DNA of 64,000 nt from a virus: IMG/VR virus record IMGVR_UViG_3300035670_000033, positions 74,072 to 138,071 of that record; one strand, 5' to 3'. Shown here piece by piece: positions 4,076-30,433 of the stretch (position 1 is the stretch's first letter; every line of letters begins with the position of its first letter). The position numbers and the translations under genes are program-made. Below the pieces are notes generated by a model. It ran no database searches. It was given only the letters and a program-made list of their open reading frames with translations, and had not been told where the DNA came from.

Positions 4076-4894
4076 TTAATTTCCCTCTTTTCTTCCTGTA
4101 ACAATTATACGGAACGACTTTAAAGAAGTCAACTGTTCTGATAAAGATTTTTCGTTTGCCTTGTAGGTTTTGCTTATCTGCGGAGGCTCAATTGAGTCAT
4201 ATATCTTGGCAAGGTCGGCGAATACGGAGACATCTATCGTTTCGGCTCCGTCCCCACCAGAGTCAATGGTTGTTCCAGTCCAGTCACCTGTAGCGAGTGC
4301 TATTTGAATTTGGTCTAGGTCTGCGACTGCTATCTGGTTTTCAGCCTTACCTCTTGCTGGCGCTTTAGCCATGTTTTCTGGTGTGTTGTCGTAGATATCA
4401 ACAACATCAAGATAGAAGTCTTCTCCGTCAAGCCATCCGCCAATTCCGACTTCTCGTGCGCCTTCCTTCGGATTCAGAAATACTTCCTTACCATGAAATG
4501 CAAGCCAAGCCATTGTCGTTTTGATTGCCGAATCTTTGGGTTCGCCATTCTCATCAAAAACATCGGATTTTTTAAGTTTTACACCGTGTTTATTTCTTCC
4601 GATTGATATTCCAGTTCTAACATCGTCTGCAACAAGTTTGTCTACAGTGAATCCACCGTCACGACCTTTTTCAAGGATTGCTTTGATTCTTTTCTTTCTC
4701 TCTGGATCTGCTTTAACAAAAGACATTGTACGCTTTTTTGTTGTTCTACGAACCATTTCGGCAGCCACTGGAAGAGGGACATTGTCTTCATCGCCGAGGG
4801 TAAACATTCCATCGCCATCTCCGTCTTTGGGCACTTTGTCGGAGGAGAAACCACCAATTGGTTGACCAAGTATTTTGTACAAAAGTTCGCTCAT
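4076..4894 (-). CDS. Head-region protein with N-terminal PIGG/DGDGDG module and unknown C-terminal domain
   Basis: KILGQPIGG...KDGDGDGMFTLGDEDNVPLP matches modules in the 7966 and 9369 genes; C-terminal GGFT...IGGWLD...YLDV...NQIAV. Confidence 0.8.
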   Translation of the reverse strand: MSELLYKILGQPIGGFSSDKVPKDGDGDGMFTLGDEDNVPLPVAAEMVRRTTKKRTMSFVKADPERKKRIKAILEKGRDGGFTVDKLVADDVRTGISIGRNKHGVKLKKSDVFDENGEPKDSAIKTTMAWLAFHGKEVFLNPKEGAREVGIGGWLDGEDFYLDVVDIYDNTPENMAKAPARGKAENQIAVADLDQIQIALATGDWTGTTIDSGGDGAETIDVSVFADLAKIYDSIEPPQISKTYKANEKSLSEQLTSLKSFRIIVTGRKEGN

Positions 4895-4897
4895 TGG

Positions 4898-5245
4898 TTA
4901 TTTTGCTTTTACGATTCCGTCGGGGATGACAGCAAATCGGCATTTTCCTTCAGGGTTAACAGGTAACGAGATGATCTTGCATGAAGAACCACCTTCGTAT
5001 AGAACACAATTGGAGCATTTTACGCCTATCTGCGCGACTTCGTTTTGTGAAGGATCGTCGTATCCCGCCCAAACTCCTGTGTAATCTTGATTAAATTTTC
5101 CATATTTTTGAGTAATTTGAATGAGGGAATCAGCCAGCGCTCGCTCTTCGGGGTGAAGGTTTGGCATTTTTGGTTTAGATATCGCAATCATTCTTACAGG
5201 GATTTGCGACATCAGCATTTCTATAATTGATTTTTCTTTTTCCAT
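4898..5245 (-). CDS. Cys-cluster protein, HiPIP-like spacing
   Basis: KCSNCVLYEGGSSCKIISLPVNPEGKCRF (Cx2C-x8-C-x12-C). Confidence 0.65.
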   Translation of the reverse strand: MEKEKSIIEMLMSQIPVRMIAISKPKMPNLHPEERALADSLIQITQKYGKFNQDYTGVWAGYDDPSQNEVAQIGVKCSNCVLYEGGSSCKIISLPVNPEGKCRFAVIPDGIVKAK

Positions 5246-5246
5246 G

Positions 5247-5654: not shown

Positions 5655-5656
5655 GG

Positions 5657-6418
5657 CTAATCCTTGTCCTTAGAGTTCTTATATCGTTCAAGCATTCGTT
5701 TGCCTTTAGCGGCTAATTCCCTAGCATCATCCGCATTCTGTGGAACTGGTTCACCCCAAGCCGCCGCTGAAAGAGCAAGCCGAGTTGGGCGACCCTTTTC
5801 ATCTTTCATAGGACCAGAAGGATTGGTGAAGAACCGTGTAAGAAATGATCCCTTACGACGCATCTTTTCTGGTGTGTCAGCAGGACCCTTGACACCCGGC
5901 TTCAAATTGGATCCATCTGTTCTGTTGAAATGCGCACGACCCGCTGCGGTTAAACCACCTTTAGGGTCTCTCAGTGGTTTGGCAGATTTCTCTTTGACGA
6001 TCGGACCACCAGCAACCCACGCACGGCAAGTCCTTTTTGATGCACATTTGAAATCAAATGCTTCGCAATATCCAAGTTCGCCAGCGCTATCAATTGCTTC
6101 CCACTCATCCTGACGATCCCCGCCAGTTACACCTTTATTGATGCAGTCTTTCATTGAGGGTGTTTGAATGAAAAGTGAACAGTTACCGCACAATTGTTTT
6201 TTAGCGGAAGCATTATCAACGTCCCACTCTTTTGCTAACTTCCCCCAATACTCTGTGTTTGGTTCAGAAGGGTTGAGCGGACCATACATTGCTGTCTTTA
6301 TCGCTTTTCCTCTGTTGGCAAGGTTTACGGCAATGTCCTGTGTGGCTTTAGGGCAAGATTCTTCTGCCTTGACACGGATAGAAATCGGTTGACCGTTGAT
6401 TAAATCGGTAAATTTCAT
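5657..6418 (-). CDS. Two-domain head-region protein: Cys-rich domain plus basic domain (DUF6321-like from memory)
   Basis: LCGNC...DC...GYCEAFDFKCASKRTCRAW, followed by DPKGGLTAAGRAHFNRTDGSNLKP...RRKGSFLTRF. Confidence 0.7.
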   Translation of the reverse strand: MKFTDLINGQPISIRVKAEESCPKATQDIAVNLANRGKAIKTAMYGPLNPSEPNTEYWGKLAKEWDVDNASAKKQLCGNCSLFIQTPSMKDCINKGVTGGDRQDEWEAIDSAGELGYCEAFDFKCASKRTCRAWVAGGPIVKEKSAKPLRDPKGGLTAAGRAHFNRTDGSNLKPGVKGPADTPEKMRRKGSFLTRFFTNPSGPMKDEKGRPTRLALSAAAWGEPVPQNADDARELAAKGKRMLERYKNSKDKD

Positions 6419-6443
6419 AGTTCCTTATTATCCCACAAAAAGC

Positions 6444-6483: not shown

Positions 6484-6499
6484 GTTAATTACTTAATGA

Positions 6500-7813
6500 T
6501 TAGGCTGATGGAGCCGCATCAAAACTTACCTTCACGAACGACTCTGGTCGCTTCACAGCGAGAGCGAGGCGTTGCTCGGCAAGGATCACAATTGCGTTAC
6601 GCACGAAGAAGTCTGCGTGCTGTTCGCTAATGCGGATGCTTGGTGATTCACGGTCGTAGATTTGTGCTCCCGTACCGAATGCACCGATAAGTGCTGTACC
6701 TTCAGCAATTGCAGGGGTGTCCACAACTGGGATCCTCCACAACTTCTGCTCGCCACCCATTGCAACAGAGACTGCTACGACATAAGCGCCGTTGCCGTCC
6801 TTGCTGAGTTCAATGTCTTCCCAATCGTTCGGGTTAAGAACGATACCCGATGGCTCGTAGTAAGCCAAGAAGGAAAGGGTTGCGGCACGACGGATTGCGT
6901 CAGCCTTGGTGTCGCTCATACCAGCAGTTGCTGAGTACACGCCATCCGACCAGTTGTAGGTCTGTACGCCTGAGGTATTCAAGATACCTGTCAGGTTTTC
7001 GCCAGTTCCCGAACCGTTAAGGATTTGTGCATCTTCCTGCAAGCGGAGACCGTACATCAACTCGTTGTCAATGATTGAGCGCAGTTGTGGCTCATCAGCA
7101 AGAACATTGCGGTGTGCGGCTTCCCAGTGAGCCAAGGTGCGAACAGGAGCCTGCTCACCAACGAAGGTGAAAGACGACTGTGGCTTGGCACCGAATGCGG
7201 AACCCGAACGCTCAGCAACTGCTGCTGCGTTGTTGGTGAATCCCGTCATGCGGAAGTATTCAATGATCGCAGCAGTTGTGGTGCGACTTGGGAACAAGTC
7301 ACGAACACGCTTGGTGCGCATTGGAGGGATGACGATTGCATCGCGTTGAATGGTTCCAAACGAGCCAGGTGTACCAGTTGGGAGTGCCGAGTACAAGTCC
7401 TTCTGACTGTACACTTCGCTACCCGACTTGTATGGTGCTGGCATGTTTGCTGAACCGCTAGCCAAAAGGGACTTGAACTCTGCTGAAGCAAGGAATGCTT
7501 CACCGATGCTCTTGCGACCCATTGACTGAACTACTTGCTGGATTTCCTGTGAAGCGTAAGCAGAAGCCTGTGCTACTGAATCCTGTGGCTCTGAAGCCCA
7601 CTTGTCAGCATCACGCATTGACTCAAGGCTCTCAACGAGCGACTTGATCTCGCGGATATCTGCCATGTTCTTGTCAAACGCGGTCTTTTGTTCTGCGGAT
7701 ACGACTACGGTGCCGTCTTCAATTTTGAAGTTGTCGGCGATTGTCTTGTTTTCTGCCATCTTGGCGCGCATTGCACCTTGAAGTTCAGTTAAACGGCTGT
7801 TGTCAAATGACAT
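6500..7813 (-). CDS. Major capsid protein, HK97 fold with N-terminal delta domain
   Basis: Coiled-coil N-terminus, then RVRDLF, AAVAERSG..KPQS, LAHW, DEPQLRSII, EDAQILNGSGTGENLTGIL, LWRIPVV, DFFVRNAIVILAEQRLALAVKRPESFVK; SD GGAG before ATG 7813. Confidence 0.96.
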   Translation of the reverse strand: MSFDNSRLTELQGAMRAKMAENKTIADNFKIEDGTVVVSAEQKTAFDKNMADIREIKSLVESLESMRDADKWASEPQDSVAQASAYASQEIQQVVQSMGRKSIGEAFLASAEFKSLLASGSANMPAPYKSGSEVYSQKDLYSALPTGTPGSFGTIQRDAIVIPPMRTKRVRDLFPSRTTTAAIIEYFRMTGFTNNAAAVAERSGSAFGAKPQSSFTFVGEQAPVRTLAHWEAAHRNVLADEPQLRSIIDNELMYGLRLQEDAQILNGSGTGENLTGILNTSGVQTYNWSDGVYSATAGMSDTKADAIRRAATLSFLAYYEPSGIVLNPNDWEDIELSKDGNGAYVVAVSVAMGGEQKLWRIPVVDTPAIAEGTALIGAFGTGAQIYDRESPSIRISEQHADFFVRNAIVILAEQRLALAVKRPESFVKVSFDAAPSA

Positions 7814-7914
7814 GTTTTTCACTCCTAGTGAATTGGATTTGGTTGGTGATTACTTATGTTTCTTTATTGCAGACTTCGGTAAGCACCTAGTCCAGTTACT
7901 ATTACTGTAATACG

Positions 7915-7950
7915 AGAATAACATCAAAGTAGTATTAGAAATGCAACCCC
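7915..7950 (-). promoter_or_regulatory. Candidate late promoter of the capsid gene
   Basis: GGGGTTGCATTT-15 bp-TGT-TATTCT; the same arrangement recurs at 41781..41816. Confidence 0.45.
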
Positions 7951-7965
7951 ATATTTAACACTTGG

Positions 7966-9372
7966 CTATTTTGAACGGTATCTTTTAACCGCCTGTGGAC
8001 AGCATCCGCCAGCGTATTTAATACCGTATTCCCCTTCATCAAAACCAGCCCATTTTTTGGCTGTTTTACGGTTTTTCCATGGGTGGTCAATAGGCAAAAG
8101 ATCATTATCTTCCGAATATTTTACATCTTTGGGTTTTTCCGAGTTCAGCAAAGACAGGAACTTTGAGACCCGCTTATTCGCTTCTTCCCGACCGCCGTCA
8201 GCAAAACCTCTAACGAACACAACCTTAAGGTCGCGAAGGTTGGTTTTGGCAGAAGTTTTTGCTTTAGCATTATTTTTGCGCACCATAACAGCGAGATTAT
8301 TGATGTCTGTGCTTGTCACGGTTGGAGGCTTTTTCTTTGGCTTGGGTACACCTTTGTAAAAAAATATTCCGTCGTCCAGTACATCTTTTTGCGATCTTTT
8401 AGCCCCACGCGCAAGCATCACATCTCTCACATTTAGTTCCTCTGGAGTAACTACGTAAGGAAGTTTCTCTGCGCGACCTACTTCGTTAATGTGTTGTTGT
8501 ACTTCCTTGGGTGAAAGTTTATATTTGCGCGATGCGCGAAGGTATGCGAATTTTTGAATTCTGCGCATTTTTTTGGCGTATTCCTTGTCATCTTTGCTGA
8601 GACCTGAAGTTTTTACGATCTCATCAATTGATGATTTCCAATAATTCTTGACATCTTTTGCCTTGTCGTAATCTATTCGTGTTACAGAACGAGGTGCATT
8701 CGCTTCACGAGATGGGCTCTTGGGTGCATTTTGCCTTCTTCTCCGAACCATTTCTGCTTGATGTTCAGCAAAACTAAGGCGCTGTTTCTTCGGCTTGTTT
8801 GCTTTTGGTTTTGGCACTTTTGCTACAGGAATATTATCTTCGCCATCTGCACCCGTAGCGAAACCATCTCCGTCTCCGTCTTCAAGAGCACCCATCCCAC
8901 CGATCGGTTTGAACATTCTTCTATAACCACTGATTGAACGACCAAGCGCTTTTTCGTCCATTTCTGACTTCTTCTTAAACCCTGAACCTTGGCGTCGCGG
9001 ATTATTTATCGGACTGTTATCCCCGCGGATACCTGTGACACGGTTGTAATCAGAAACATTTGTACAAGGAAGCCAAACAAGTTTTCCATCGCGTGCCGTG
9101 TAACGGCGAATACCTATACATCCAAGGTTGCGTGCACGAATACGGGCAGACTCGGGGTCACTGAAAGTATCAGGATCTGTGGAACGGCTAACAAAGTTAA
9201 CGAAACCCTTTTCTTCTACAGGTTTCTCTAAAGTCTGCTTTTTATTCATGCCTTTGATGTACTCAGCAGGATTTTGATTTTTCACTATTGTAAAGTAATA
9301 AAAATCAGCCTTCTCATCAGGCGACAAGGTTTGTACGAGAATGGCTAATTCTCTTGATTCGGTAGGTGTCAT
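7966..9372 (-). CDS. Multi-module head-region protein
   Basis: ARNLGCIG..WLPC module, PIGG/DGDGDG module, degenerate copy of the start of the 9369 ART-like domain (PYVVTPEEL..ARG), and C-terminal LKVVFVRG..RVSKFLSLL..DNDLLPIDHP domain. Confidence 0.8.
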   Translation of the reverse strand: MTPTESRELAILVQTLSPDEKADFYYFTIVKNQNPAEYIKGMNKKQTLEKPVEEKGFVNFVSRSTDPDTFSDPESARIRARNLGCIGIRRYTARDGKLVWLPCTNVSDYNRVTGIRGDNSPINNPRRQGSGFKKKSEMDEKALGRSISGYRRMFKPIGGMGALEDGDGDGFATGADGEDNIPVAKVPKPKANKPKKQRLSFAEHQAEMVRRRRQNAPKSPSREANAPRSVTRIDYDKAKDVKNYWKSSIDEIVKTSGLSKDDKEYAKKMRRIQKFAYLRASRKYKLSPKEVQQHINEVGRAEKLPYVVTPEELNVRDVMLARGAKRSQKDVLDDGIFFYKGVPKPKKKPPTVTSTDINNLAVMVRKNNAKAKTSAKTNLRDLKVVFVRGFADGGREEANKRVSKFLSLLNSEKPKDVKYSEDNDLLPIDHPWKNRKTAKKWAGFDEGEYGIKYAGGCCPQAVKRYRSK

Positions 9373-10607
9373 ATGGTTTCCACAAATCCTTCTTCAACGG
9401 CGAGCATTGACCTATCCCATACAACAAAAAAATTGTCTTTAGTTAGAGCAGCCCTATGACCCTTAGCCGCGAAGAGACGACCAATATCGTCGTCTCCACC
9501 GAACTCACTTTTTCTACCGCTGTATCTCGCCTCAATCATTTCATCAAATTCTGATCTCTCTGTAACGGTGTTCGGGGGAATTGCCACCCTCATCACCGTT
9601 CCTTGCATCGCATTATTAATATAGGCGTATTGTCTAGCGGTTCTAAGGTCATCCGTAAAATAGATTCCATTAGCCTGATGACCCATACCCGCCCAGTAGT
9701 CACCTTCCATAAACTGTTTTGCCAACTGTTCAGATGTTGACAATCTATTATCAGGGGTGCCAGGTAAATCGGCGTTAAAAACATCCTTAATGCCTCGGTA
9801 AGCAATCGTCCAACCCTCTTGTTCCAACTGTTTCATTTTTTCAGACGAGACAACTTTTGGCTTGCCCGTAAAACCCTGTTTTTCCGCAATTATTTCAAGT
9901 TGGACATCTCCATATTGCTTTCCAGCAAGTTTGTATTCATTCGTTCGCTTTTTTATTTCTTTGTCGCCCTCTGATCTAACTTCAATAAAACCCCTATAGT
10001 TTCCAAAGTAAACTTTCAAATCGTCCGTAATGTCCTTGGCTCGCTTAAGTATTTTTTTAGTAGGGGCAGGAATATTGTCTTCTCCGTCAGGACCAGTAGT
10101 GAACCCGTCGCTATCGCCGTCAAACTCTGCTACACCACCAATAGGGCGACCTAAAGACTTGCCAGAAAACGAGCCAGTTACAAGCCCACCACCCGGCAAG
10201 GTTGCGATGCCAGTAATAGGTTTCTCGTCAAGGTTCTCCCAACCCCGTTTAGGTGCCTTGTGGTTGCAAACCGCATAATACTTTTTCCCTGCAAGCAGAA
10301 CAGTTCGTACACCACCACAACCACGAGCCTTAGAAATAGCAACAGCATCAGCACGATTCTCATAATATGCATCAGACTTTGTTTCTAAACGCTTGGTGCG
10401 TTGAACCATTTTCGGCAAAGGTTTTTTATTATTTGAAGCACGAACTTTTAAATACTCTTCTTTACCCTTTTTGATTCCCTCATATTCTTCGTGTGAGGCG
10501 CAAGGCATCCAACCAGCATCGGTCTCATGGGCTCCCTGACATCCAAGCATGCGGGCAACACGAAGCGCCTGATCCCTAGTGGTTTTATTCTTTTCGTCTT
10601 CAGACAT
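9369..10607 (-). CDS. Multi-module protein with C-terminal ADP-ribosyltransferase-like domain
   Basis: Two GCxG..(P/V)CxxH modules, PIGG/DGDSDG module, then AYRG...GHQANGIYFTDDLRTARQYA...VMRVAI resembling ART-fold domains on phage MuF proteins. Confidence 0.65.
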   Translation of the reverse strand: MSEDEKNKTTRDQALRVARMLGCQGAHETDAGWMPCASHEEYEGIKKGKEEYLKVRASNNKKPLPKMVQRTKRLETKSDAYYENRADAVAISKARGCGGVRTVLLAGKKYYAVCNHKAPKRGWENLDEKPITGIATLPGGGLVTGSFSGKSLGRPIGGVAEFDGDSDGFTTGPDGEDNIPAPTKKILKRAKDITDDLKVYFGNYRGFIEVRSEGDKEIKKRTNEYKLAGKQYGDVQLEIIAEKQGFTGKPKVVSSEKMKQLEQEGWTIAYRGIKDVFNADLPGTPDNRLSTSEQLAKQFMEGDYWAGMGHQANGIYFTDDLRTARQYAYINNAMQGTVMRVAIPPNTVTERSEFDEMIEARYSGRKSEFGGDDDIGRLFAAKGHRAALTKDNFFVVWDRSMLAVEEGFVETI

Positions 10608-10870
10608 TATTGTTTTTCTTTTTTAGATACTTTTTCAACCTCTGAAGCATATTCCATAGACATCGCGTACTGATCAAATAGTTCATCTATTTTGTCTGCA
10701 TTCTCTTTGTTCATCAGATACGAGACCATTGACTCAAGGTCACCATCTTTGCCATTTTCATTTGCATACCCGTAGGCAATGGCAATAATTTTAGAACGTG
10801 TCTCAGGGTTCTTTACTGTCGTTAGCAGTTGATTTTTGATTGAGTTTTTTTGTTCTGTTGTAAGTTTCAT
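10607..10870 (-). CDS. Small helical protein coupled to paralog A (candidate immunity/chaperone)
   Basis: 87 aa; TAATG stop-start overlap with the upstream gene. Confidence 0.7.
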   Translation of the reverse strand: MKLTTEQKNSIKNQLLTTVKNPETRSKIIAIAYGYANENGKDGDLESMVSYLMNKENADKIDELFDQYAMSMEYASEVEKVSKKEKQ

Positions 10871-20501: not shown

Positions 20502-22217
20502 TTACGATTTCTTTCGCTCTTTCGCGAGGTCGGGTTTGATGAATGTTTCGTAAAGCCAGCGCGGAGCCTTTCGCTTGACACCATCAGTACCAGTGTATTC
20601 AACAAGTTGAAGTGCATCTGGAATCTCACCACTGTCAACATTGAATTTGAATGCGCCTTCTGACGCGTTAGCAAAATCTTCAATATTTTTTATGATGTTG
20701 TCTTTGTTGCTTGACTCGGCAAGAGAGTTAATCATTCGCGGAAACTTTCGCTTCTCACCGATAGTGAAAGGACGTGATCGTTCAATACTGATGCTCACAC
20801 CGTTGGGCGCAACGAAAGCAATTTTACTCATTGAAGGACCACCCAATAGCGCTAGGTCATCAGCACCTATGTCAGATGGAAGTTGAACTGCGCGAACCAT
20901 TGCACCGTCAACCATGTCAGGGTTCTCACTGAAGGAACGCAAAACCGATGATGGAACTACAGGGCGAAGAACCACTCCATCTCTGCGGATCATTCGTCCT
21001 TCGCCTCGTGGAGCACCCTTCAAAAGACTCACCGCATCCGACACAGACTTGCCGAACCTATCTTTTTGGAAAGCACCTGTTCTTGGTATTTGCGCCATGC
21101 GTTGAATCTGTATGGTGCGCGTATTGCTTGGATTTCCTTCTAATACTTCAGAAAGGTTTTCTGCTCGTGCTTGTGGAAGTCGTGTGGTTGCCCCTCGTAC
21201 CGCGCGAGCGGCTAGTGCGAGTGGTCCTGGTATTTCAAACAGTTGCGCACCACAGGTTGAAAAACGGTTGTCCGTGAATCGTCCACCATATTCAAAACCA
21301 GCAGGGCATCGTGCTTGACGCTTGCGATTGGGCTTTAGTCTACTTAACGCTCCACCGCCCCCACCGGGTACGAGTGCACCATAAACTCGTGAACGGATAG
21401 GTGATGTAAGTGGTGAAATGTTCCCCGGCGTTAGTGCAGAACCAACGGCTTGTGCCGCTCTGCCTGCCGTGCTTCCAGAACCTATAAGTCCTGCTTTCGT
21501 TTCCATGTCCTCTGCATCGTCTTTGCCGACACGGTATCCACCACCACGTTTTTTATATTCACGAACAAGCCAAGCATTAGCGTAAGCAGATGGGTATACA
21601 TTGAATTTCTTTTTTGCTTCTGCTTTGACCCGTGCATAAAGTTCAGGGTCTGTGGGGATATTTTCGCTCTTGAATTCTTCTCCATCGGACTTAAATGTGG
21701 AGACATTGATCGGCTTGTTTTCTTCCCGATCTCCTGTTGTTTCTGCTCGTCGTTTTCTGCGTACCGCTGAATCAATTTCTTCCGCAGACATTTTCATGGC
21801 GGTAGATTTCTTTACACACTTAGGGTATTTACCTGAATCTGCGTCCCCGCGACCGCAAGGTTCAAAACCGCCACCTTTTTTAGGGCGTGAAATGTCAACC
21901 CATTCTTCTTCAAACCATTTGCCCAAACCACCACGCTTGGTTTCATCACCGACGAATGTTTCTGCACCGAGCCTTGAGGAGCGAGACTTCAGGTAAAGTT
22001 TTGCTTTGAAGTTTAGAAGAGTTCTGCTTCCGTCAAGTGGAGTTTTACGAACATCTGATCCTTTAGTAAAAAGGAATTTTGTTTTCGCATTATCAGGATT
22101 AAAATAAAGTTCCTCACCCGAGACAATATTTGTGCGTTTCATGGCAGTTTTCATGCGCATGGACATACGGAGTTTCCTTGCGAAATACTCAAAGTCTTGG
22201 TTGAGGTAGTTGCTCAT
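20502..22217 (-). CDS. Multi-module head-region protein with divergent RCPxG module
   Basis: GGLGKWFEEEWVD..PCGR..YPKC domain, LYARVKAEAKKKF.VYPSAYA..LVREYKKRGGGY domain (DUF5872-like from memory), RCPAGFEYGGRFTDNRFSTCG. Confidence 0.75.
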   Translation of the reverse strand: MSNYLNQDFEYFARKLRMSMRMKTAMKRTNIVSGEELYFNPDNAKTKFLFTKGSDVRKTPLDGSRTLLNFKAKLYLKSRSSRLGAETFVGDETKRGGLGKWFEEEWVDISRPKKGGGFEPCGRGDADSGKYPKCVKKSTAMKMSAEEIDSAVRRKRRAETTGDREENKPINVSTFKSDGEEFKSENIPTDPELYARVKAEAKKKFNVYPSAYANAWLVREYKKRGGGYRVGKDDAEDMETKAGLIGSGSTAGRAAQAVGSALTPGNISPLTSPIRSRVYGALVPGGGGGALSRLKPNRKRQARCPAGFEYGGRFTDNRFSTCGAQLFEIPGPLALAARAVRGATTRLPQARAENLSEVLEGNPSNTRTIQIQRMAQIPRTGAFQKDRFGKSVSDAVSLLKGAPRGEGRMIRRDGVVLRPVVPSSVLRSFSENPDMVDGAMVRAVQLPSDIGADDLALLGGPSMSKIAFVAPNGVSISIERSRPFTIGEKRKFPRMINSLAESSNKDNIIKNIEDFANASEGAFKFNVDSGEIPDALQLVEYTGTDGVKRKAPRWLYETFIKPDLAKERKKS

Positions 22218-22345: not shown

Positions 22346-22546
22346 TCAGCCGTCTTGTTTTACTGGCTCCCAATATCCTCGGGAAAGAACCGAGTCAATC
22401 ATGACTTCCGTTTGGACGCCGTTCCCCATTTGTATGAAACCCATTCTCCTAGACACACCTTCCACAGGGCTGTCATGGGTGTAAAAAAGTTTATCGTTAC
22501 CCCTGTTGGCTATGTGCTGATTGTTGACTAAGTGCTGATTTTTCAT
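22346..22546 (-). CDS. Small protein coupled to the DUF3626-like gene (candidate immunity)
   Basis: 66 aa ending VMIDSVLSRGYWEPV; ATGA overlap. Confidence 0.6.
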   Translation of the reverse strand: MKNQHLVNNQHIANRGNDKLFYTHDSPVEGVSRRMGFIQMGNGVQTEVMIDSVLSRGYWEPVKQDG

Positions 22547-24219
22547 ACAGGCGATTCTTCCTCTACTAATTCTTGTTCTGTCTTCACCACATCCATAATT
22601 GTCCCCGACTGCACATCAAACTTTTGATTTTTCCTTACAGGTGCGACACGAATGCCTGCTTTTTCAAGTTTTTCTCTGATGGTTTCAAAGTCTTTTTCGG
22701 TGACACTGTTACCAAACGGATCGTTGTCGTCAACGGCGATAACGGCAAATTCAACGTCTCCTGTGGATACGCCTCCGTGCAATTGTGCTTCCGCATACTC
22801 AATTTTGTATGGACTCCAAACCGCATCTGCGCTTGGTGTGCCAATAGGTGCTGGTTTGTAGGTAGGTCTTCCGAGACTGTCTCCACCTGTATATGTTGAG
22901 CGCGACTCAATGTCTTTTTTCATCATCAACTGAATGGCACCATAAGTTCTGACTTCGGTCAACGAATCACGGTCAACCTTCCCGTTCTGTGTGAGATATC
23001 CGTAAATAGGACGCTTTGACGGCTCAACACTTGGGTGGTACCCCAACTGAACAGCCTCTGATTGTGCGCGTTGACCAAAATCCAAAGTACCCATAGATGT
23101 ACCTGTTTCAAACTGCGATTTGAAACGACCAGATTCAAGTATCTTGTCCAAAACATCGGGTTGTACTGCAATTGTCACGCGCGAGTTTTCTATGGTTTCT
23201 TTCGCTGTTTGCAAACGACGCTCTTCACTAAAGTTTTCATCAAAGGCGGTGACGTTTCCGGCTCTAGTTTGCGCCTGCCATCTTTTGTGTCTGAGTAAAT
23301 CAACTTGTGCTTCAACAATTATTTTTGTTTCATCTGAATTGAAACCTAGATTTCCGTATTCAGTTGTTGCTATTTTCGCGTAGGCGTCCATCAGATCTGT
23401 TACTTCGCTGTCTGTTGTATTTGGATCTTGAATTAACGGCAAAGAACGATCATATTTATCTTGTACTGAACTTGGGAAAGTCCCAACTAGAAGCATCTTC
23501 AATGGTCTTCCAGTTTCCTTTGCTTCGGCGATGTCATCTGTTGGGGTGCGAACATCATCAAGTTCTTTTTCTTTTTCTTTTTTATCTTTACGCCTTTTCA
23601 GGCTTGCTAGCACAAAGTTTCTTGCGTCAACCGCAGCATCTTTTTTGAGTTTTGACGCAACCGCTTCCAACTGTTCTTTTTTCTTGTCAGATATTTTGCC
23701 TCGTTTATGTAGCGAATCAGAAGCAAAATCCAATAGTTGCCCCCCACCAACCCTTAATAGCATCGCGCTCATGAGTGTGGAATCAGTAAGAGAACCTGAA
23801 CCGTCTACATGCATATAATCTAATGTTTGTAAAGCCAAGAGCGCTGTTGCTTTTGCGCCATTCCTTATATTTTCGTTTTTTAGGATGCCTCTAGCACCAT
23901 CAATGAGTTTCCCAGCCATAGAAGCCGCCCCGCGGGCTGCTGATTCAGCAGAAGGTGTAAGACAGTTTGACATTTGCATGTCGGTAAATTGGTTCGCATT
24001 TGGAGTTCCGGGCGGGCATCGTAGTTTGCCTGATGAGTCAACAATAACACCAGCGGCTCGCGCTGCTCTTACTCCAACAGAACCTAGTTCGGGTTTATCT
24101 TTGATCGTCGGACCAAGAAAACCTTTGAATAAAAGAATGTTATCTTGGACAACTTTCACCGACTGAAAATAGTCGGCTACTCTCTCGTTTGCGTCAAATG
24201 CGCGAGACGATTTGCTCAT
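22543..24219 (-). CDS. Paralog D: divergent RCPxG module plus C-terminal DUF3626-like domain
   Basis: LRCPPGTPNANQFTDMQMSNC; C-terminal GRFKSQFETGTS, RPIYGYL, YG...RSTYTGGDSL, YAEAQLHGGV; SD GGAGGAG before ATG 24219. Confidence 0.72.
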   Translation of the reverse strand: MSKSSRAFDANERVADYFQSVKVVQDNILLFKGFLGPTIKDKPELGSVGVRAARAAGVIVDSSGKLRCPPGTPNANQFTDMQMSNCLTPSAESAARGAASMAGKLIDGARGILKNENIRNGAKATALLALQTLDYMHVDGSGSLTDSTLMSAMLLRVGGGQLLDFASDSLHKRGKISDKKKEQLEAVASKLKKDAAVDARNFVLASLKRRKDKKEKEKELDDVRTPTDDIAEAKETGRPLKMLLVGTFPSSVQDKYDRSLPLIQDPNTTDSEVTDLMDAYAKIATTEYGNLGFNSDETKIIVEAQVDLLRHKRWQAQTRAGNVTAFDENFSEERRLQTAKETIENSRVTIAVQPDVLDKILESGRFKSQFETGTSMGTLDFGQRAQSEAVQLGYHPSVEPSKRPIYGYLTQNGKVDRDSLTEVRTYGAIQLMMKKDIESRSTYTGGDSLGRPTYKPAPIGTPSADAVWSPYKIEYAEAQLHGGVSTGDVEFAVIAVDDNDPFGNSVTEKDFETIREKLEKAGIRVAPVRKNQKFDVQSGTIMDVVKTEQELVEEESPV

Positions 24220-24231
24220 CGTCTCCTCCAA

Positions 24232-24498
24232 CTATTCTTTGCTGGTTTCTGTCGCTTTTGTAAGTGTGGAAAGTGGAACAACATCATCATCCTCTACTGC
24301 TTTTTTAGGAGCCTTCTTCGTTTCCACTTTTTGCTCTACGACAACTTCTTGCTCAACAGTTTCTTCTTTTACTTCAACTTCAATAACCGCAGGAGTATCT
24401 ACCACAACAACATCTGGTGTTGGCTGTATTTCTTCCTTGGTATCAAAGGTTAAGCCAGAAGTACTGACTGAATCATTGATTTGGTTTTTCTTTTTCAC
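24232..24498 (-). CDS. Small low-complexity (V/E/K) protein
   Basis: 88 aa ORF overlapping the upstream stop. Confidence 0.6.
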   Translation of the reverse strand: MKKKNQINDSVSTSGLTFDTKEEIQPTPDVVVVDTPAVIEVEVKEETVEQEVVVEQKVETKKAPKKAVEDDDVVPLSTLTKATETSKE

Positions 24499-25976
24499 TT
24501 ATCCAAACCTGTTTCAATTTCAAGCATTTCAAGTTCCATCAAACTGCTCAAGAACTCTTTTGCTTCATCATCAAGAAGGGTCTTCTCTTCTGACCACTCA
24601 GCAGGAATCATGTCCTCTTTGTCAAGTTCCATTGCACGCTTTTTGATGTGTGCCATTGCCTTGCTCTTGTCTTTTGCGCGACCATAAGCCATGATTGCGT
24701 TCTTGAGGTCTTCCTCGTCCTTGATTGGGTAAGAACCGTCAGCCATAGCCATTCCGCCCTTAGCCATTTCCATGCGCTCATCTTCGTCGTACATTGCCTT
24801 CAAAGCAATGTCGGCTACTTCTTCGTCAATGTCGGCTGCTTCTTCAGGATCGTATTCATCAAAGCCAAGGATTTCTCCGTCTACTCCGACATAAACATCG
24901 TAAGACTTTCCATCCAAACCTTCAATTTCAACTGCGTATGCGTCGTAACCGTCAAACATGTCTGCATCAACGGAAACAACATCGCCTTCAATTGACTTTG
25001 TTGCGATTGCTGAAGCCTCACTGAAAGAAATTACTTTCTGACCCGGAACGGTTACTACTTCACCGATCAGATCTTCGTTAAGAAGATGCCAACCCATGCA
25101 CTCACCGCTTGTTCCGTCAAAGTAAGCCTCAACAGGTTTTCCATCTTTGCGTTGAACATCTACAACGAAGATGTCTACTTCGTCTGCATAGCCTGAGTCA
25201 AGAACTTTTCCTGCGAACATACTCTCAGCCATACCTTCAACTTCAAGAAGGCTTGGCATTGTGTCTTGTTGTTCACATCCACCTGGACATGAAGCGCAGA
25301 TTTCCGAACCACCTGAATAAACGCGACGCTCAATAGCGCAAACAAAAGCAAGATCGTCATAGTCAGCAGACTTGACACCCATTGTCTCCATGCGCTTTGC
25401 GCGTGCCTTCTTGCGCTGTTCCATCATCTTTTCAATCTCGCCATACATCTTTTCTTCTTCATCGTCAAGATCTTCAGGCATGTCTTCTTCGTCGTCTTCC
25501 TCTTCCATTTCCACGACTTCAGCAGGCTTCTTTTTCTTTTTGGTTGAAGAGGTTGACATTTCGTCTTCCATCATCGCAAGATCTTCTTCCAACTTTGCGC
25601 CCTTCTCTTCCGAAGCGGTAACCCATTCCGATTTCTCCACTGGTGTTGCTGCCTCAGGCGCGGCATCTGCTGGAACTTCTTCTTCTGTTTGTGTTACAGC
25701 CTTCGCTCCACACTTGCCACAAACTTTTGCGCCGGGCTTGTAGCCACAGTCTTTTAGTTCTAAACCTTTTGCACACTCAATTCCGCCGTCTGCTAAAAGT
25801 TTTACTGTCGGTGTTTCGCTAGCCATGTTCGTGGACTCCTTGTAGTGCATCGTTTTAGCGATACACCTTGATGGATTAGAGCAAACAGAGCATGGCGTCA
25901 GACGCTTTTCGCCTGACATCAAACACTGATACTTTGCTGTTTTTTGTGGTAAACCTGTTATTGAAGTATAACTCAT
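24495..25976 (-). CDS. Cys-rich, acidic protein with two PepSY-like domains and an actinophage head-protein C-terminal domain
   Basis: Several CxxC clusters; ISFSEASAIATKSIEGDVVSVD...YAVEI..DGKSYDVYVGVDGEILG; AMADGSYPIKDEEDLKNAIMAYGRAKD...HIKKRA...IPAEW. Confidence 0.7.
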   Translation of the reverse strand: MSYTSITGLPQKTAKYQCLMSGEKRLTPCSVCSNPSRCIAKTMHYKESTNMASETPTVKLLADGGIECAKGLELKDCGYKPGAKVCGKCGAKAVTQTEEEVPADAAPEAATPVEKSEWVTASEEKGAKLEEDLAMMEDEMSTSSTKKKKKPAEVVEMEEEDDEEDMPEDLDDEEEKMYGEIEKMMEQRKKARAKRMETMGVKSADYDDLAFVCAIERRVYSGGSEICASCPGGCEQQDTMPSLLEVEGMAESMFAGKVLDSGYADEVDIFVVDVQRKDGKPVEAYFDGTSGECMGWHLLNEDLIGEVVTVPGQKVISFSEASAIATKSIEGDVVSVDADMFDGYDAYAVEIEGLDGKSYDVYVGVDGEILGFDEYDPEEAADIDEEVADIALKAMYDEDERMEMAKGGMAMADGSYPIKDEEDLKNAIMAYGRAKDKSKAMAHIKKRAMELDKEDMIPAEWSEEKTLLDDEAKEFLSSLMELEMLEIETGLDK

Positions 25977-26030: not shown

Positions 26031-28130
26031 TTACATTGAGTCCATAATGTTGAGAAGCGCATCAAAGGCATCATCTTCAACATCACCGATTTCAACTTGT
26101 ACACCCTCTTCCGTGACTTCTGATTTCATCTGATAATAATCCAAAATCGGATCAAGAAGTTCTTTCACTTCATACAGGGAGTGCTCCGACGAGGAGATGA
26201 GAAGCATTTCTTTTTCATCACCCAACAGTGATTTTGCTTCAATATCCGAAGAAACGCCACCAGCATTAAGAACTTCTTTTAGAAGATTGAAAGCGTTTTG
26301 CAGTTTTGTCATATTGCGAGAATTAATGACTCGTCCTGCCTTCACCTCAATGTCTTCGTCGGCATCTTTGCCCATAAGTTCCGAAATAGCCGCCATAAGC
26401 ATGCCCATCATTTGCTTTGGGTCTTTGCCCCCGCCGCCACAACCACAGTCGTCATCGTCTCCGTCTCGGGAGTATGGCATCTCTACAACGCCACCATTAT
26501 CATCGTCGCCTTCCATGACCCAATTGTCTTTATCAGCCATGTAGTTGATGAAATCTGGTTCAGCGTTCATGAATTCCTTAAGAGCCTCATACGCTTTTTC
26601 GTTGCCCTCGTCTTCGTTCTCAAACTCAACATCTTCCATTTTCATGGTTTCTTCTGTTTCATCTGATTCAGCCAAACGACTAGCCATAGCCTCCATCATT
26701 TCATAACCCTTTTCCTCAGAGTCAAGGAAGTCAAATATTGACTTGATTTCTTCTTCAGTCATGGATTCAATAGACTTTCCGGGTTTGAGCACTCCGCCGA
26801 GACGGTTATTAAACTCACTGTCATCCCAATTTCGTTTGCGTAGTTTTCCACGACAATTCTTCATGCCCGGATGATGGCATCCTTCGTTCGGCCAGAGACC
26901 CGTTGTTTCGTGATGCAACCAAGCACAGATATTGCTCAACGGGTAAAGTTCTGGATGATTTGCAAGGATTACTCGGCATCGGCGGAATCCGCCCGGCTTG
27001 CGCATGATTGGGCGCCAGTAGCGAAGTAGTTTTTCAAGGTTCCCACGACGCGGACCGTATCCACGGGTTCGTGCGGTAACAATTTCCTGAGGGATTATTC
27101 CGCCAAGTGGGTCAGCCTTTTCAGGTGACTTTGGCTTAACACCAGCAGGTACTTGTGGGTCTTCATCCATGCGGTAGCGGTCTTCATAACGGCGTTCACC
27201 ATCAGACCCGCTAGGCGTATCGCCGTCTGCGTTGATATAGACGGTTTGTGGCTTAACCCTTGTTGGTTCGCCGAACATGAACTGTCCATCTTCAAAATGG
27301 TAGGAGACACGCATAGTGGTAATTCCACCCTGTTCGCCTCTGTGGTCAAAGATGACGCTGTTCGCATCTGATTCCCTTAACCGTACTGCTCCACCAAACT
27401 TCTTCGCTAAAGCAAGCGGAAGGTTCTCTTTGCGTCCCTTTGCTGGCATTGGAGCATCAACCGCATCATCATCTTCTTCTTCACGAGGCTTCTGCCTGTT
27501 CATGCTGTTAGCGAGAATACGCATAAGCAAAGAACGACCTTGTTCTGTTAACTTGCCATCACCATCGCGCATTTGACCTTTGATTTCAGAATCATCTGTT
27601 TGATTTTCAACCGACTTTATTGAAATCGTGCCAGTCAGTTGGTTTGCGCCATGAAGCACAGGGCTTGCTTCATAGAGTTCAACTTTTTTCAAAACATTTG
27701 CTTGACGCTGTGGGTCAAAGTCCGCATCTAGAGTCTTGTAGCCAATTGACCATTCTTGTTCTTCGCCAAAGAAAGCAACATCAGCGAAAGCCTGTCGTCC
27801 TCGTTCGGACTTCAGGTTGAACTGAACTTTCGCGTACAGACCGCCGATACCAGCGGCGCGCATTTTGATAGGAAGTCGTGGGTCAGAAGGTGGAACTTCA
27901 TACATTTCAAGGACTTTGCCGATTGGCTCATTCCAGTTGTGTCCCCATACAACACGGGGTTTGCGCCTTTTCAGGCTTTCCGTGAACGCGCCGGGGACGA
28001 TGATGTCGCCTACAGAGTCCTTGTTGCCAATTCCCGCGACGAAACATTCAACAACGCCGAGTGCCTCGTCAATATTGAATTGACCCTGAAGGGCTTTATA
28101 TTGCTGTGTTTCTGATAATGCTGTTGGCAT
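26031..28130 (-). CDS. Prohead (capsid maturation) protease, HK97 family, with long C-terminal extension
   Basis: GIGNKDSVGDIIVPGAF, VVWGHNWNEPIG, EWSIGY, LKKVELYEASPVLHGANQLT; SD GGAG before ATG 28130. Confidence 0.93.
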   Translation of the reverse strand: MPTALSETQQYKALQGQFNIDEALGVVECFVAGIGNKDSVGDIIVPGAFTESLKRRKPRVVWGHNWNEPIGKVLEMYEVPPSDPRLPIKMRAAGIGGLYAKVQFNLKSERGRQAFADVAFFGEEQEWSIGYKTLDADFDPQRQANVLKKVELYEASPVLHGANQLTGTISIKSVENQTDDSEIKGQMRDGDGKLTEQGRSLLMRILANSMNRQKPREEEDDDAVDAPMPAKGRKENLPLALAKKFGGAVRLRESDANSVIFDHRGEQGGITTMRVSYHFEDGQFMFGEPTRVKPQTVYINADGDTPSGSDGERRYEDRYRMDEDPQVPAGVKPKSPEKADPLGGIIPQEIVTARTRGYGPRRGNLEKLLRYWRPIMRKPGGFRRCRVILANHPELYPLSNICAWLHHETTGLWPNEGCHHPGMKNCRGKLRKRNWDDSEFNNRLGGVLKPGKSIESMTEEEIKSIFDFLDSEEKGYEMMEAMASRLAESDETEETMKMEDVEFENEDEGNEKAYEALKEFMNAEPDFINYMADKDNWVMEGDDDNGGVVEMPYSRDGDDDDCGCGGGGKDPKQMMGMLMAAISELMGKDADEDIEVKAGRVINSRNMTKLQNAFNLLKEVLNAGGVSSDIEAKSLLGDEKEMLLISSSEHSLYEVKELLDPILDYYQMKSEVTEEGVQVEIGDVEDDAFDALLNIMDSM

Positions 28131-28222
28131 GACGCTCCATATATGTTGGTTTATAAACAATAAACCATTTGAAGCGTCAAAAAAGGAACACTTTCAGTAT
28201 AACTAGGTTATTTTACTGAAAA

Positions 28223-30433
28223 CTACTCTTTGTCAAACCCGAAACGAAGACGACAACGACAATTAAATGTAAGCGCAGGTGGCGCTATCGGATCACCCGG
28301 AAATCGCAACATCATTCCGTCAACAACAAAACCATCACCAAATTTAACGGTTTTGCCTTCAAGGAACTTGTGAGCGTTGCGAACACGGGAATCTTTTCTA
28401 GTCAGCCAAGTCTTAGTGAAACCACCCTGACTGTCTTTACCCGCTAAATAAACACCGCCGTTGTACGAAGCCTGAGCCTCATGTTCAGCAATGTCCCTTT
28501 TCCTCTTGGAAATAAGTTTCAAAAATATCGCTATCAAAGCCAACCTCAAAAGAGTGGATCGTTCCTCTTGGTCTGCTTCCATCATGGCAACAGCGATCGC
28601 CGCGGCTATCTCTTCTGCTGTCCCCGTGTTGGCTTGTTGCATCCGCTCTATTTGCTGTTGCGCAAGTTTTTCAACTTCCTGTGGTTCAAGCGCGACTTGC
28701 TCACTGGTTCGCGACGCCACATATTCCTTGGCGTCAACATAAATCGCGGAGATAATTGGCTCCAGGTCATCTTCTAATTGCTTGTTCCAAATCTCGGGAT
28801 CAAAAACCATGTCAACAGTAAGCGCTCCGCTAGCCAGTGCTTTCACGCCACGCTTACCAAACGCTTTTTCCATGACCACTCGTTGCTGTCTTTCAAATAG
28901 TCGCTCTAAAGCGCGATCAAGTATTTCCGTCCACCTGTCAGTATCTGTGTCGGCTTTGGTTTCAATTTCCTCAACGAACTTAAGTTGCATCTCATGTTGA
29001 ATTTTTTCAAACTCTGAGAGTTGTTGATCAGGCGTGAGAGCCGCTGTTTCTGTTGGTGCTTCCGCTGGCATATCTGGCGCTGGCACTGGTGCAGGTGGAG
29101 CGGGTGGCGGTATAGCCATTGCACCATCTTGAGGTGGAAGACCGCCGGGTACTGCATTCGGATCAACACCAGCCATATCAACAGGCTGTTGTTCTTCAGG
29201 TTTGAACGGCTTCTCCGTGTTCGCGATAGGCGTGAGGTTCGGGTTAGAGAGAAGCGAATCCGCAAGTTCTGATTCAACTTTTTTTCTTCCTGTTGCCGTA
29301 CGGTACTCGTTCAACGAAATGAGACCCTGTTGAAATTCGTCCATTACATATCGTTCGCGTTCTTGTTTAGCAAGAATCAAAATAGGAATGTCGTCGGTAT
29401 CAAAGTCAACATAATATTTATCGTCAAGTTCATCAAGCGCACGAGCAATCGTGTGCAGGTGAGGAGCCATTGTCTCCATCCAAAAAACACGCAGTTCTTC
29501 TGACGCATTTGAGAAAGTTCTTCCAGCGGCGTTACCGATTACTGACTCTGGCACTCCGAACGCGGCAAAGATTTCGTTCTTCTGTATTTCTCTCATTTGC
29601 GAGTAGGCGGCATCTCGCGGTGATGCGGAGGTGTCTACATAGTCAACTCCTGCTTCAGATGCAATAACTGTTGTAGAACCAGTCTTGGAAAGGTTGCCCC
29701 TGAAACGGTTTTTCAATTCTTGTTTATCGTCGTCTTCCATGTCGCCACGAACAACTAGCAAACCGCCGGGTCGTCCATCGTTCAACAAGTAGTTCCTGTT
29801 ATACAGTTTTGACAGAGTTTCTAATTCAATTGCTATACCAGCAGATTCCATTGGTGTCATGGAAAGGTATGGATCTAATGGGTGGGGTCGGCGAATCCAA
29901 CAAACATCTTCTGGCTTAAGAACAAACTTTGTTCCGTTGCGCATATCAACTTCAAAACCTGCAACAAATCTTTTAGGGTCAGGGATCGGTGCAGTGAATT
30001 GAGGCGGAAGAAGTTGCAGAGCAATAATTTTCCCGTCTCGCGAGCGAACCTTCTCAATGAATACGCCTCTTGTGCTCATCAAAAGTTGAGCGGAAATTCT
30101 GTAGCGGAAAGCGAATGAGTTTTCACCTTCATTGGACTTGGAGTTAAAAATCTCTAGTAGTGACTCGTTGCTCTTTGTTTTTTCTCCACGCTGATCATTG
30201 CCTTTTCGCAAGATGACAGGAAGTCGCGCTTGGTTTCCTGCGATTGCATCTATGCATCGGAAAACCCATGTAACTTTTTGCATGCCGTCGCGATATGCGC
30301 GTTCAATGTCCCAACCGTCTTTGTACGGTTTGCCTTGGCGTGAAACATCAAATGCAACTGGTGCGCCGGGGTTTGACATTGCCTTTTCAGCAAAGTTCCT
30401 GAGATCCTTATTGTTATTGCTGTTCCAAGCCAT
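28223..30433 (-). CDS. HK97-family portal protein fused to a C-terminal MuF (SPP1 gp7-like) domain
   Basis: WVFRCIDAIA..ARLP, GLSPM-like LSMTPMESA, FGVPESVIG, LISLNEYR; C-terminal KTWLTRKDSRVRNAH...FPGDP..PPALTFNCRCRL. Confidence 0.93.
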   Translation of the reverse strand: MAWNSNNNKDLRNFAEKAMSNPGAPVAFDVSRQGKPYKDGWDIERAYRDGMQKVTWVFRCIDAIAGNQARLPVILRKGNDQRGEKTKSNESLLEIFNSKSNEGENSFAFRYRISAQLLMSTRGVFIEKVRSRDGKIIALQLLPPQFTAPIPDPKRFVAGFEVDMRNGTKFVLKPEDVCWIRRPHPLDPYLSMTPMESAGIAIELETLSKLYNRNYLLNDGRPGGLLVVRGDMEDDDKQELKNRFRGNLSKTGSTTVIASEAGVDYVDTSASPRDAAYSQMREIQKNEIFAAFGVPESVIGNAAGRTFSNASEELRVFWMETMAPHLHTIARALDELDDKYYVDFDTDDIPILILAKQERERYVMDEFQQGLISLNEYRTATGRKKVESELADSLLSNPNLTPIANTEKPFKPEEQQPVDMAGVDPNAVPGGLPPQDGAMAIPPPAPPAPVPAPDMPAEAPTETAALTPDQQLSEFEKIQHEMQLKFVEEIETKADTDTDRWTEILDRALERLFERQQRVVMEKAFGKRGVKALASGALTVDMVFDPEIWNKQLEDDLEPIISAIYVDAKEYVASRTSEQVALEPQEVEKLAQQQIERMQQANTGTAEEIAAAIAVAMMEADQEERSTLLRLALIAIFLKLISKRKRDIAEHEAQASYNGGVYLAGKDSQGGFTKTWLTRKDSRVRNAHKFLEGKTVKFGDGFVVDGMMLRFPGDPIAPPALTFNCRCRLRFGFDKE

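Follow-up and report, generated by a model that had tools for sequence, protein, structure and literature searches.

Can a single prohead protease of the HK97 type serve a whole set of head proteins? The protease of phage HK97 cleaves the capsid protein after Lys103, and apart from this protein it is known to cut only itself. The question of a wider range is raised by the head module of a phage represented in IMG/VR by record IMGVR_UViG_3300035670_000033; the stretch analyzed here (positions 74,072 to 138,071 of the record; 64,000 nucleotides), referred to below as the window, is the second half of this single 138,071-bp record, and the head module occupies positions 4076 to 30433 of the window on the minus strand. 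An inspection of the letters and open reading frames (ORFs) of the window, referred to as the original prediction, had noted a lysine followed by Ala, Ser, or Gly (x-K↓[ASG], in which the arrow marks the proposed cut) at module boundaries throughout this region and had proposed that the prohead protease processes a set of cargo polyproteins. Comparison with relatives indicates that about 20 sites composed of a lysine plus a small residue are kept at the starts and joints of head proteins. The conservation of this signal is, on these alignments, well supported, and its function as a cleavage code is unproven; we consider it reasonably probable that the conserved sites are the cleavage signals of a Lys-specific prohead protease of the S78 family.

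IMG/VR holds hundreds of relatives of this phage, and 210 of their loci were fetched; for each head protein, homologs were collected, thinned at 90% identity, and aligned, and each lysine was assigned an island value, defined as its conservation minus the mean conservation of a flank of ±8 residues. In the head proteins, lysines that precede Ala, Ser, or Gly scored 0.100 (n = 123), compared with -0.013 for other lysines (n = 427; Mann-Whitney P = 1.3e-5); when permutation was stratified by protein, 0 of 20,000 permutations reached the observed difference (P < 5e-5), and the excess was retained after omission of three giant paralogous proteins of 954, 959, and 1048 amino acids (aa) (P = 2e-5). 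No such excess was found in 18 non-head proteins, including terminase, Erf, exonuclease, and ParB (-0.039 versus -0.026; P = 0.53), and no conservation effect emerged when R, E, D, Q, N, T, L, V, or F was put in the place of lysine. All 27 strings quoted in the original prediction are present in the minus-strand head proteins, and they represent a selection, amounting to about one-fifth of the 135 K-[ASG] dipeptides encoded there. As the selection had been made without homologs, the conservation of its members constitutes independent validation: the quoted sites scored 0.372 (n = 25) and the unquoted K-[ASG] sites 0.037 (n = 99; P = 1.4e-8), 20 of the 25 testable quoted sites formed clear islands, and lysine was retained in 458 of 470 aligned cells, with arginine in only 3. 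Three quoted sites, EEFK↓S, VKEK↓S, and MDEK↓A, drew no support from the whole-protein island score, although VKEK↓S nevertheless coincides with the edge of a DUF6321 module; for L-E-T-K↓S in the 412-aa protein only close relatives were available.

The capsid protein provides the most direct link to a proven cut. ORF numbering is used here for residues unless Met-11 (protease) or Met-4 (capsid) numbering is stated, as the listed ORF starts are probably too far upstream and relatives point to Met-11 and Met-4, respectively, as the starts of these two proteins and to Met-5 (approximately position 24219) as that of the 562-aa protein. All 35 thinned relatives retain K117, K141, and D142 of the capsid protein (100% conservation), and K104 is mostly kept; the stretch between K117 and K141 is rich in indels, and K141-D142 is situated between this stretch and the conserved N-arm. 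The mature HK97 chain in the Protein Data Bank (PDB) comprises 282 aa and therefore begins at Ser104, within residues 100 to 106 of gp5 (T-F-N-K↓S-L-G). In a profile alignment, residue 16 of the mature HK97 chain pairs with capsid residue 155 (Met-4 numbering), and extrapolation from the PDB alignment places Ser104 one residue past the predicted K141↓D142 cut. The assertion that YSQK↓D occupies the position of the HK97 delta-domain cut is thus borne out to within one residue of K103↓S104. A lysine at the delta boundary is also kept in capsid proteins of Gordonia, Brevibacterium, Mycobacterium, Arthrobacter, Moraxella, Pantoea, and Microbacterium phages, which often keep the upstream K↓S-L-G and E-F-K elements too; Gordonia phage GMA6 has E-Q-K↓D. 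Phage D3 and a Vibrio phage have P-R-S-A-I-T at the boundary, without a lysine, and their proteases are annotated as ClpP type; D3 was, for these reasons, not a useful comparison. The residues equivalent to those that form the HK97 cross-link (Lys169, Asn356, and Glu363) are K210, N406, and E413 (Met-4 numbering), all invariant, and chain-mail cross-linking of this capsid is therefore likely.

The enzyme itself belongs to the expected family. The protease polyprotein matches PF04586 (Peptidase_S78) at 44.6 bits, against a cutoff of 21, over residues 27 to 176 of its 699-aa form; it matches phrog_80 with an E value of 2.8e-29 and HK97 gp4 in tblastn with an E value of 2e-6, and it is 25% identical to the latter. 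In a pairwise alignment, G-H-N falls on N-H-K and W-S-I-G on M-S-V-G of HK97 gp4, whose catalytic residues we take to be His65 and Ser114; H64 and S128 of the protein studied here are invariant in 20 relatives. These matches confirm the original identification of a true HK97-type S78 enzyme. Its gene lies between the portal and capsid genes, all on the minus strand, with approximately 18 kb of other genes before the capsid gene, whereas no such stretch intervenes between the protease and capsid genes in HK97. The polyprotein consists of the N-terminal Peptidase_S78 domain, a hypervariable insert region, an invariant Cys/His-rich domain, an acidic region, and a small C-terminal domain. K12, K172, K338, K597, and K633 (Met-11 numbering) are invariant in 20 sequences. 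K182 (ORF numbering) lies at the end of the S78 domain, opposite A-A-M-K↓S of HK97 gp4 in the alignment, with the hypervariable insert after it; at K607, in the context D-E-D-I-E-V-K↓A-G-R, variable sequence on the upstream side gives way to a module that is conserved; and the conservation of K643 is 0.96, that of its flank 0.21. No peptidase family other than S78 was detected in the head proteins by Pfam or PHROGs, remote homology not having been explored. In the protease protein of Gordonia phage GMA6, N-Y-K↓A occurs at residue 7 and V-S-V-K↓S closes the protease domain. In Gordonia phage DalanDe, gene 27 (locus positions 7425 to 12326) encodes a 1633-aa protein annotated as a capsid maturation protease, in which the S78 domain (residues 1125 to 1295) follows a charged extension of 1120 residues, and Q-Y-K↓A (residue 1127) is an internal site immediately ahead of the protease domain. 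The Cys/His-rich domain of the polyprotein (ORF residues approximately 329 to 453) is nearly invariant and has no Pfam or PHROG match; it contains the runs R-R-G-N-L-E, G-G-F-R-R-C, and C-A-W-L-H-H-E-T-T-G-L-W-P-N-E-G-C-H-H-P-G-M-K-N-C and may bind metal.

Further sites stand at the joints of mosaic proteins. In the portal protein, K493-A at the portal-MuF joint is kept in 15 of 15 thinned relatives, with a variable upstream region and a conserved A-D-x-D-T-D-R-W downstream. The module of the 468-aa protein that begins G-F-V-N-F-V-S-R is preceded by lysine in 22 of 22 distinct upstream contexts that comprise at least six unrelated upstream modules; the usual form of this joint, at K55, is Φ-E/D-x-K (Φ, hydrophobic), and it marked the second strongest conservation step in a blind scan. 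At K241 of the 571-aa protein (D-M-E-T-K↓A-G-L-I-G-S), homology to distant relatives begins directly after the lysine, the next residue being A or V, and 21 BLAST alignments (high-scoring segment pairs) end at approximately residue 237. K393 of the 493-aa protein is followed by A or R in relatives, and the module after it is fused to the protease polyprotein in phages GMA6 and DalanDe, at the C terminus in the latter. In the 253-aa protein, K144 (K↓S-A-K-P) stands before the DUF6321 module, and a K-[ASG] dipeptide is found 3 to 10 residues upstream of DUF6321 in 27 of 32 distinct contexts. DUF6321 is encoded by a separate gene here; in many relatives it has been inserted into the protease polyprotein, where it comes next after the protease domain and is immediately preceded by I-S-I-K↓; modules therefore move between the genes of the head block. 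Module shuffling of the polyvalent type was encountered in this set, with upstream modules exchanged at K55 of the 468-aa protein and K241 of the 571-aa protein and with DUF6321 mobile.

The starts of a second group of proteins are marked by a leader. The sequence N-x-Φ-x-F/Y-K↓A/G is common to the 954-, 959-, 1048-, 571-, and 562-aa proteins and their relatives, and in the three giant paralogs N-x-Φ-x-F/Y-K↓A is followed 18 residues on by Y/F-E-V/I-K. An alignment of 36 distinct relatives revealed conservation over approximately 40 residues, beyond the lysines alone; in distant relatives arginine follows the second leader lysine, and in two sequences arginine replaces the first. K9 of the 954-aa paralog is conserved at 1.00 and followed by A in 25 sequences and S in 1; K27 is likewise conserved at 1.00 and followed by G in 14 and R in 10. 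In the 571-aa protein, K71-A is kept in all relatives, and in the 562-aa protein K36-G is invariant in 23 thinned relatives, preceded by F, Y, T, V, or S. The 954-aa paralog, which had no match by tblastn among 50,697 phage records and whose relatives came only from IMG/VR, consists of the leader, an Arg-rich, Lys-poor region, and an enzyme-like C-terminal half. The leader of the 959-aa paralog is internal, preceded by an N-terminal extension of 111 aa (residues 1 to 111). Small separate ORFs of 97 and 105 aa (17338-17631 and 14020-14337) precede the other two paralogs, and the 105-aa ORF ends in K-S-F-K-A. As had been stated, arginine replaces lysine in the linkers of the paralogs, with 1 Lys and 43 Arg in residues 51 to 250 of the 1048-aa protein and 2 Lys and 43 Arg in residues 151 to 350 of the 959-aa protein, the C-terminal halves being balanced; avoidance of a Lys-specific protease is compatible with this bias, but DNA binding by the Arg-rich region would account for it equally well. 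At the break points within the giant paralogs there was no K-[ASG], and only the leader carries the motif; the paralogs therefore look like leader-trimmed single proteins rather than polyproteins. Thus, the claim of a motif at module boundaries throughout the head region applies to K55 of the 468-aa protein, K241 of the 571-aa protein, K144 of the 253-aa protein, K493 of the portal, and K182 and K607 of the protease but not to the interior of the giant paralogs. An invariant lysine is present in each of the kinase-like C-terminal halves of two paralogs, in W-V-F-K-A-A (K710 of the 959-aa protein) and Y-F-L-K (K706 of the 954-aa protein); judged by these contexts, both are more likely to be catalytic than to be cut sites.

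We suggest that the S78 enzyme, with which the 699-aa polyprotein begins, recognizes a short exposed motif and cleaves it on the C-terminal side of lysine. The motif would run roughly as follows: a hydrophobic residue at P4; a polar residue, often Glu, at P3; F, Y, V, I, T, or A at P2; Lys at P1; and at P1′ usually A, S, or G but sometimes D, V, or R. Cleavage at K141↓D142 of the capsid protein would free the delta scaffold domain as in HK97, and cuts at K104 and K117 would fall inside that domain. The polyprotein would cut itself to release a 12-residue N-terminal peptide, at the end of the protease domain (K182), and at several C-terminal joints; the portal protein would lose a 17-residue N-terminal peptide and be cut at the portal-MuF joint (K493); and joints between swappable modules would be cut in the 468-, 571-, 253-, and 493-aa proteins. 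Five proteins whose genes lie between those of the protease and the capsid would be cut in their common leader (N-x-Φ-x-F/Y-K↓A/G), which would act like the capsid-targeting sequence of T4. In this scheme, we infer the protease as the agent, the cutting itself, and the packaging and ejection of the products. The earlier proposal that the prohead protease processes a set of cargo polyproteins is therefore favored by the enzyme family, the Lys-specific islands, the module joints, and the position of the capsid site, whereas its extension to the giant paralogs is not, since these do not have the appearance of polyproteins. A more far-reaching possibility, which we raise tentatively and with some doubt, is that the protease, with a strict lysine rule, works as a processor of polyproteins: whatever module stands behind a Φ-E-x-K joint or the common leader would be loaded into the capsid and then set free as a protein of its own, a plug-and-play address that would allow cargo to be swapped freely among freshwater actinophages, with the MuF domain of the portal and the domains appended to the protease released in the same way.

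A number of observations weigh against reading the sites as a cleavage code. Conservation is a mark of function, not of cleavage; the phage is known only from metagenomes, and the support for cutting comes from comparison of sequences. The copies of the leader in five proteins are homologous and therefore constitute one element, not independent occurrences. K666 of the protease polyprotein lies inside a confidently predicted helix, and the AlphaFold models are poor (mean pLDDT, 48.8 for the protease and 54.2 for the capsid protein) and do not define domain edges or the exposure of the sites. Although lysine is conserved at most of the quoted sites, P1′ is not always small: the capsid site has D there, the second leader site has R in distant relatives, and K241 of the 571-aa protein can be followed by V. 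With D, R, V, and E all represented at this position, x-K↓[ASG] cannot be the whole rule. In a blind survey of homology break points, K-[ASG] was near 13 of 35, compared with 25% expected, a difference that was not significant, and in the blind scan for conservation steps, lysine was the first conserved residue at 3 of 24; both tests are underpowered, and neither supports a motif at every module boundary. The loose motif is, as written, not overrepresented: [FILVEY]-x-K-[ASG] occurs 46 times in the head proteins, where 44.5 ± 6.7 are expected from within-protein shuffles (z = 0.2), and in this sense it cannot be said to recur. Nor is there enrichment relative to other genes, as K-[ASG] accounts for 0.212 of lysines in head genes, 0.213 in tail genes, and 0.177 in the rest; a frequency equal to that in tail and replication genes was the outcome that the original prediction had itself named as contrary to its thesis. 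The higher density of the loose motif in the head module (5.4 per 1000 aa versus 3.0 to 3.4 elsewhere) arises because head genes are rich in lysine (7.5% versus 3.9 to 5.4% elsewhere). Narrower forms do stand out, with 16 occurrences of [FY]-K-[ASG] versus 8.2 expected (z = 2.8; enriched in the head only), 13 of Φ-E-[VIATLE]-K in head genes versus 5.1, and 15 of Φ-[EQDNTS]-[FYVITAE]-K-[ASG] versus 4.6, a count reached by 0 of 400 shuffles, the controls for the last motif being 5 versus 5.0 in tail genes and 5 versus 10.5 in the rest; these narrower motifs were set post hoc, after the sites had been inspected.

The chance-level count of the loose motif, the abundance of lysine, a 23% share of A, S, and G among residues, the 135 dipeptides on offer, the three quoted sites that are not conserved, and the nonsignificant blind boundary tests together invite the suspicion that chance dipeptides in conserved spots had simply been picked. 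We regard this as very improbable and, for the core sites, as already largely refuted, given that picks made without homologs proved far more conserved than the unquoted dipeptides, that the effect is specific to lysine and to the head proteins, and that junction counts as high as 22 of 22 and 27 of 32 were obtained. The sites could alternatively be docking or addressing signals that bind the protease, the delta domain, or the portal and direct proteins into the procapsid, with no cutting or with cutting of the capsid protein only. The length of the conserved leader, which goes beyond the surroundings of its lysines, would suit such a role, the DarB targeting signal of phage P1 works without a known cleavage consensus (PMC9024508), and conservation alone cannot separate binding from cutting; but an address has no need to recur at joints of swapped modules, at the portal-MuF joint, and at the end of the protease domain, the near-absolute preference for lysine over arginine fits the S1 pocket of a protease better than a generic basic contact, and the capsid site matches the proven HK97 cut. 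For these reasons, we think addressing without cleavage unlikely.

If the sites are cut, the agent could be another enzyme, such as a trypsin-like protease of the host or a second phage protease that acts before assembly or after ejection. Only context ties the cuts to the S78 enzyme, and Iyer et al. have proposed autoproteolysis by metallopeptidase domains embedded in polyvalent phage proteins (PMC5512222); with no second protease domain evident in the head proteins by Pfam and PHROGs, with the effect confined to head-module proteins, and with the capsid site being that cut by the homologous enzyme of HK97, we judge this alternative to be improbable. We give still less credence, and the least of all, to the idea that the lysines serve other chemistry, either isopeptide cross-links of the HK97 type or modification by kinase-, acetyltransferase-, or ADP-ribosyltransferase-like domains of the phage. 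The capsid protein does keep the equivalents of the cross-link residues, and some lysines, such as K710 of the 959-aa protein, look catalytic, but cross-link and catalytic lysines lie within folded domains rather than at variable joints or in N-terminal peptides, and such chemistry provides no reason for a small residue after the lysine. Remnants resembling Shine-Dalgarno sequences at the joints (Glu-Glu-Lys codons) were also considered and set aside, as conservation of lysine plus a small residue at the protein level and the capsid site do not fit them.

Cleavage by the S78 enzyme, the reading that we prefer, has partial precedents. The likeness to HK97 gp4 and gp5 resides in the protease family, in a capsid protein that is 37% identical and has an N-terminal delta domain, and in a predicted cut at most one residue off; HK97-type capsid proteins likewise possess upstream K↓S-L/I-G and F-K elements. 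In contrast to HK97, the protease here heads a 699-aa polyprotein and approximately 10 further head-module proteins carry candidate sites, and the P3-P2 residues of HK97 (F-N) fall outside the motif seen here. The gp21 protease of T4 cuts after Glu in L/I-x-E and processes many head proteins at this one motif (PMC9026906), and the internal proteins IPI to IPIII and Alt bear a capsid-targeting leader of approximately 10 residues that gp21 removes, and the cargo is ejected into the host (PMC9026906, PMC9024508). A short N-terminal leader shared by several proteins and ending at a protease motif is common to T4 and the phage studied here; the T4 protease belongs to a family other than S78 and has Glu rather than Lys at P1, and here a second conserved Lys site and a conserved N-domain follow the leader. 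Glu before A, S, or G in the head proteins displayed no conservation excess, unlike what would be expected of cutting of the T4 gp21 type. Head maturation at one motif is also established for the giant phages phiKZ (gp175) and SPN3US (gp245); in SPN3US, 14 cuts have been measured in nine head proteins, with substrates that include the portal, ejection proteins, and the propeptide of the protease and with long propeptides cut several times (PMC10052503). That motif ends in Glu, the protease is of a T4-like family, and cutting at module joints to set separate enzymes free has not been described there. Polyvalent proteins and MuF fusions (Iyer et al. 2017, PMC5512222) are similar in being large mosaic multidomain proteins of virion genes, with portal/MuF fusions and rapid exchange of modules; the embedded metallopeptidase (MPTase) proposed there was not found here by Pfam or PHROGs, remote homology not having been explored, and the joints instead carry a Lys motif like that of a prohead protease. 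Phage P1 likewise combines an HK97-like protease with a capsid protein that loses its N-terminal scaffold domain by cleavage, and its large Dar cargo proteins are loaded by means of an N-terminal signal; no shared leader or cleavage consensus was found in the Dar proteins, whereas five proteins share a leader here.

What would be new is an HK97-type enzyme with a lysine rule that serves many substrates, joints that travel with swappable modules, and a cargo leader shared by five proteins in actinophages. To date, measurements of multisubstrate processing of head proteins are confined to proteases of the T4-like and phiKZ-like types, both of which have Glu at P1; if our reading is correct, processing of many substrates at one motif extends to the much commoner HK97-type protease. 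It would also supply a sequence rule for abundant freshwater actinophages that are not in culture, with which their mature virion proteins and injected cargo could be predicted, and would account for the movement of modules among the protease polyprotein, the portal, and the cargo genes. Ordinary tryptic proteomics cannot reveal cuts after lysine, and processing of this kind may therefore have escaped notice in actinophages already in culture; GMA6 and DalanDe, both Gordonia phages, are cultured relatives with the same sites.

Table 1. Features discussed in the text (positions are those of the window unless stated otherwise; residues are in ORF numbering; arrows mark proposed cuts)
Feature	Position	Strand	Details
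Portal fused to MuF-like domain	28223..30433	-	PF04860 56-380; PF04233 640-729; phrog_2468 from 498
Portal candidate sites	K17 30383-30385; K493 28955-28957	-	K493 at portal-MuF joint
Prohead protease polyprotein	26031..28160	-	Likely start ATG 28130, giving 699 aa; PF04586
Protease candidate sites	K22 28095-28097; K182 27615-27617; K194; K348 27117-27119	-
Protease candidate sites, C-terminal	K607 26340-26342; K643 26232-26234; K666	-
493-aa protein	24495..25976	-	Conserved K202-S 25371-25373; K393 24798-24800
562-aa protein	22543..24231	-	Diverged copy of leader and N-domain; K36-G 24124-24126
571-aa multimodule protein	20502..22217	-	Leader copy K71 22005-22007; joint K241 21495-21497
Putative cargo paralog, 954 aa	17637..20501	-	F-K↓A, K9 20475-20477; Y-E-V-K↓G, K27 20421-20423
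Putative cargo paralog, 959 aa	14334..17213	-	K120 16854-16856; K138 16800-16802; leader internal
Putative cargo paralog, 1048 aa	10870..14016	-	K9 13990-13992; K27 13936-13938
468-aa multimodule protein	7966..9372	-	K55 9208-9210, V-E-E-K↓G-F-V-N-F-V-S-R-S-T-D-P-D
Major capsid protein with N-terminal delta (scaffold) domain	6500..7822	-	phrog_10, PF05065; likely start ATG 7813
Capsid conserved lysines	K60; K104 7511-7513; K117 7472-7474	-	K104, K↓S-I/L-G; K117, E-F-K↓S
Capsid K141	7400-7402	-	K↓D, predicted maturation cut
253-aa DUF6321 protein	5657..6418	-	PF19846 150-221; K17 6368-6370; K144 5987-5989
Two WhiB-family genes	Record positions 66421-66615 and 30857-31048		In the half of the genome not covered by the window

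The record as a whole has a CheckV completeness of 97%. Its two WhiB-family genes make an actinobacterial host probable, and the tail sheath encoded in a divergent plus-strand block, which opens with the large terminase, identifies the phage as a myovirus. The minus-strand block was recognized as the head module by Pfam and PHROGs matches, and its genes are arranged in the order portal-MuF, protease ORF (709 aa), a run of genes of unnamed function, capsid, and four smaller genes; the run encodes proteins of 493, 88, 562, and 571 aa, the paralogs of 954, 959, and 1048 aa with their small neighbors, and proteins of 412 and 468 aa. A tag composed of P-I-G-G, 5 to 12 further residues, and D-G-D-G/S-D-G-F/M-x-T/L-G-x-D-G/E-E-D-N-I/V-P is common to three head-module proteins. 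It has no attached Lys joint, and in one of its carriers (4076-4894, residue 22) it produced the third strongest conservation step in the blind scan; the other carriers are encoded at 7966-9372 and 9369-10607, all three on the minus strand.

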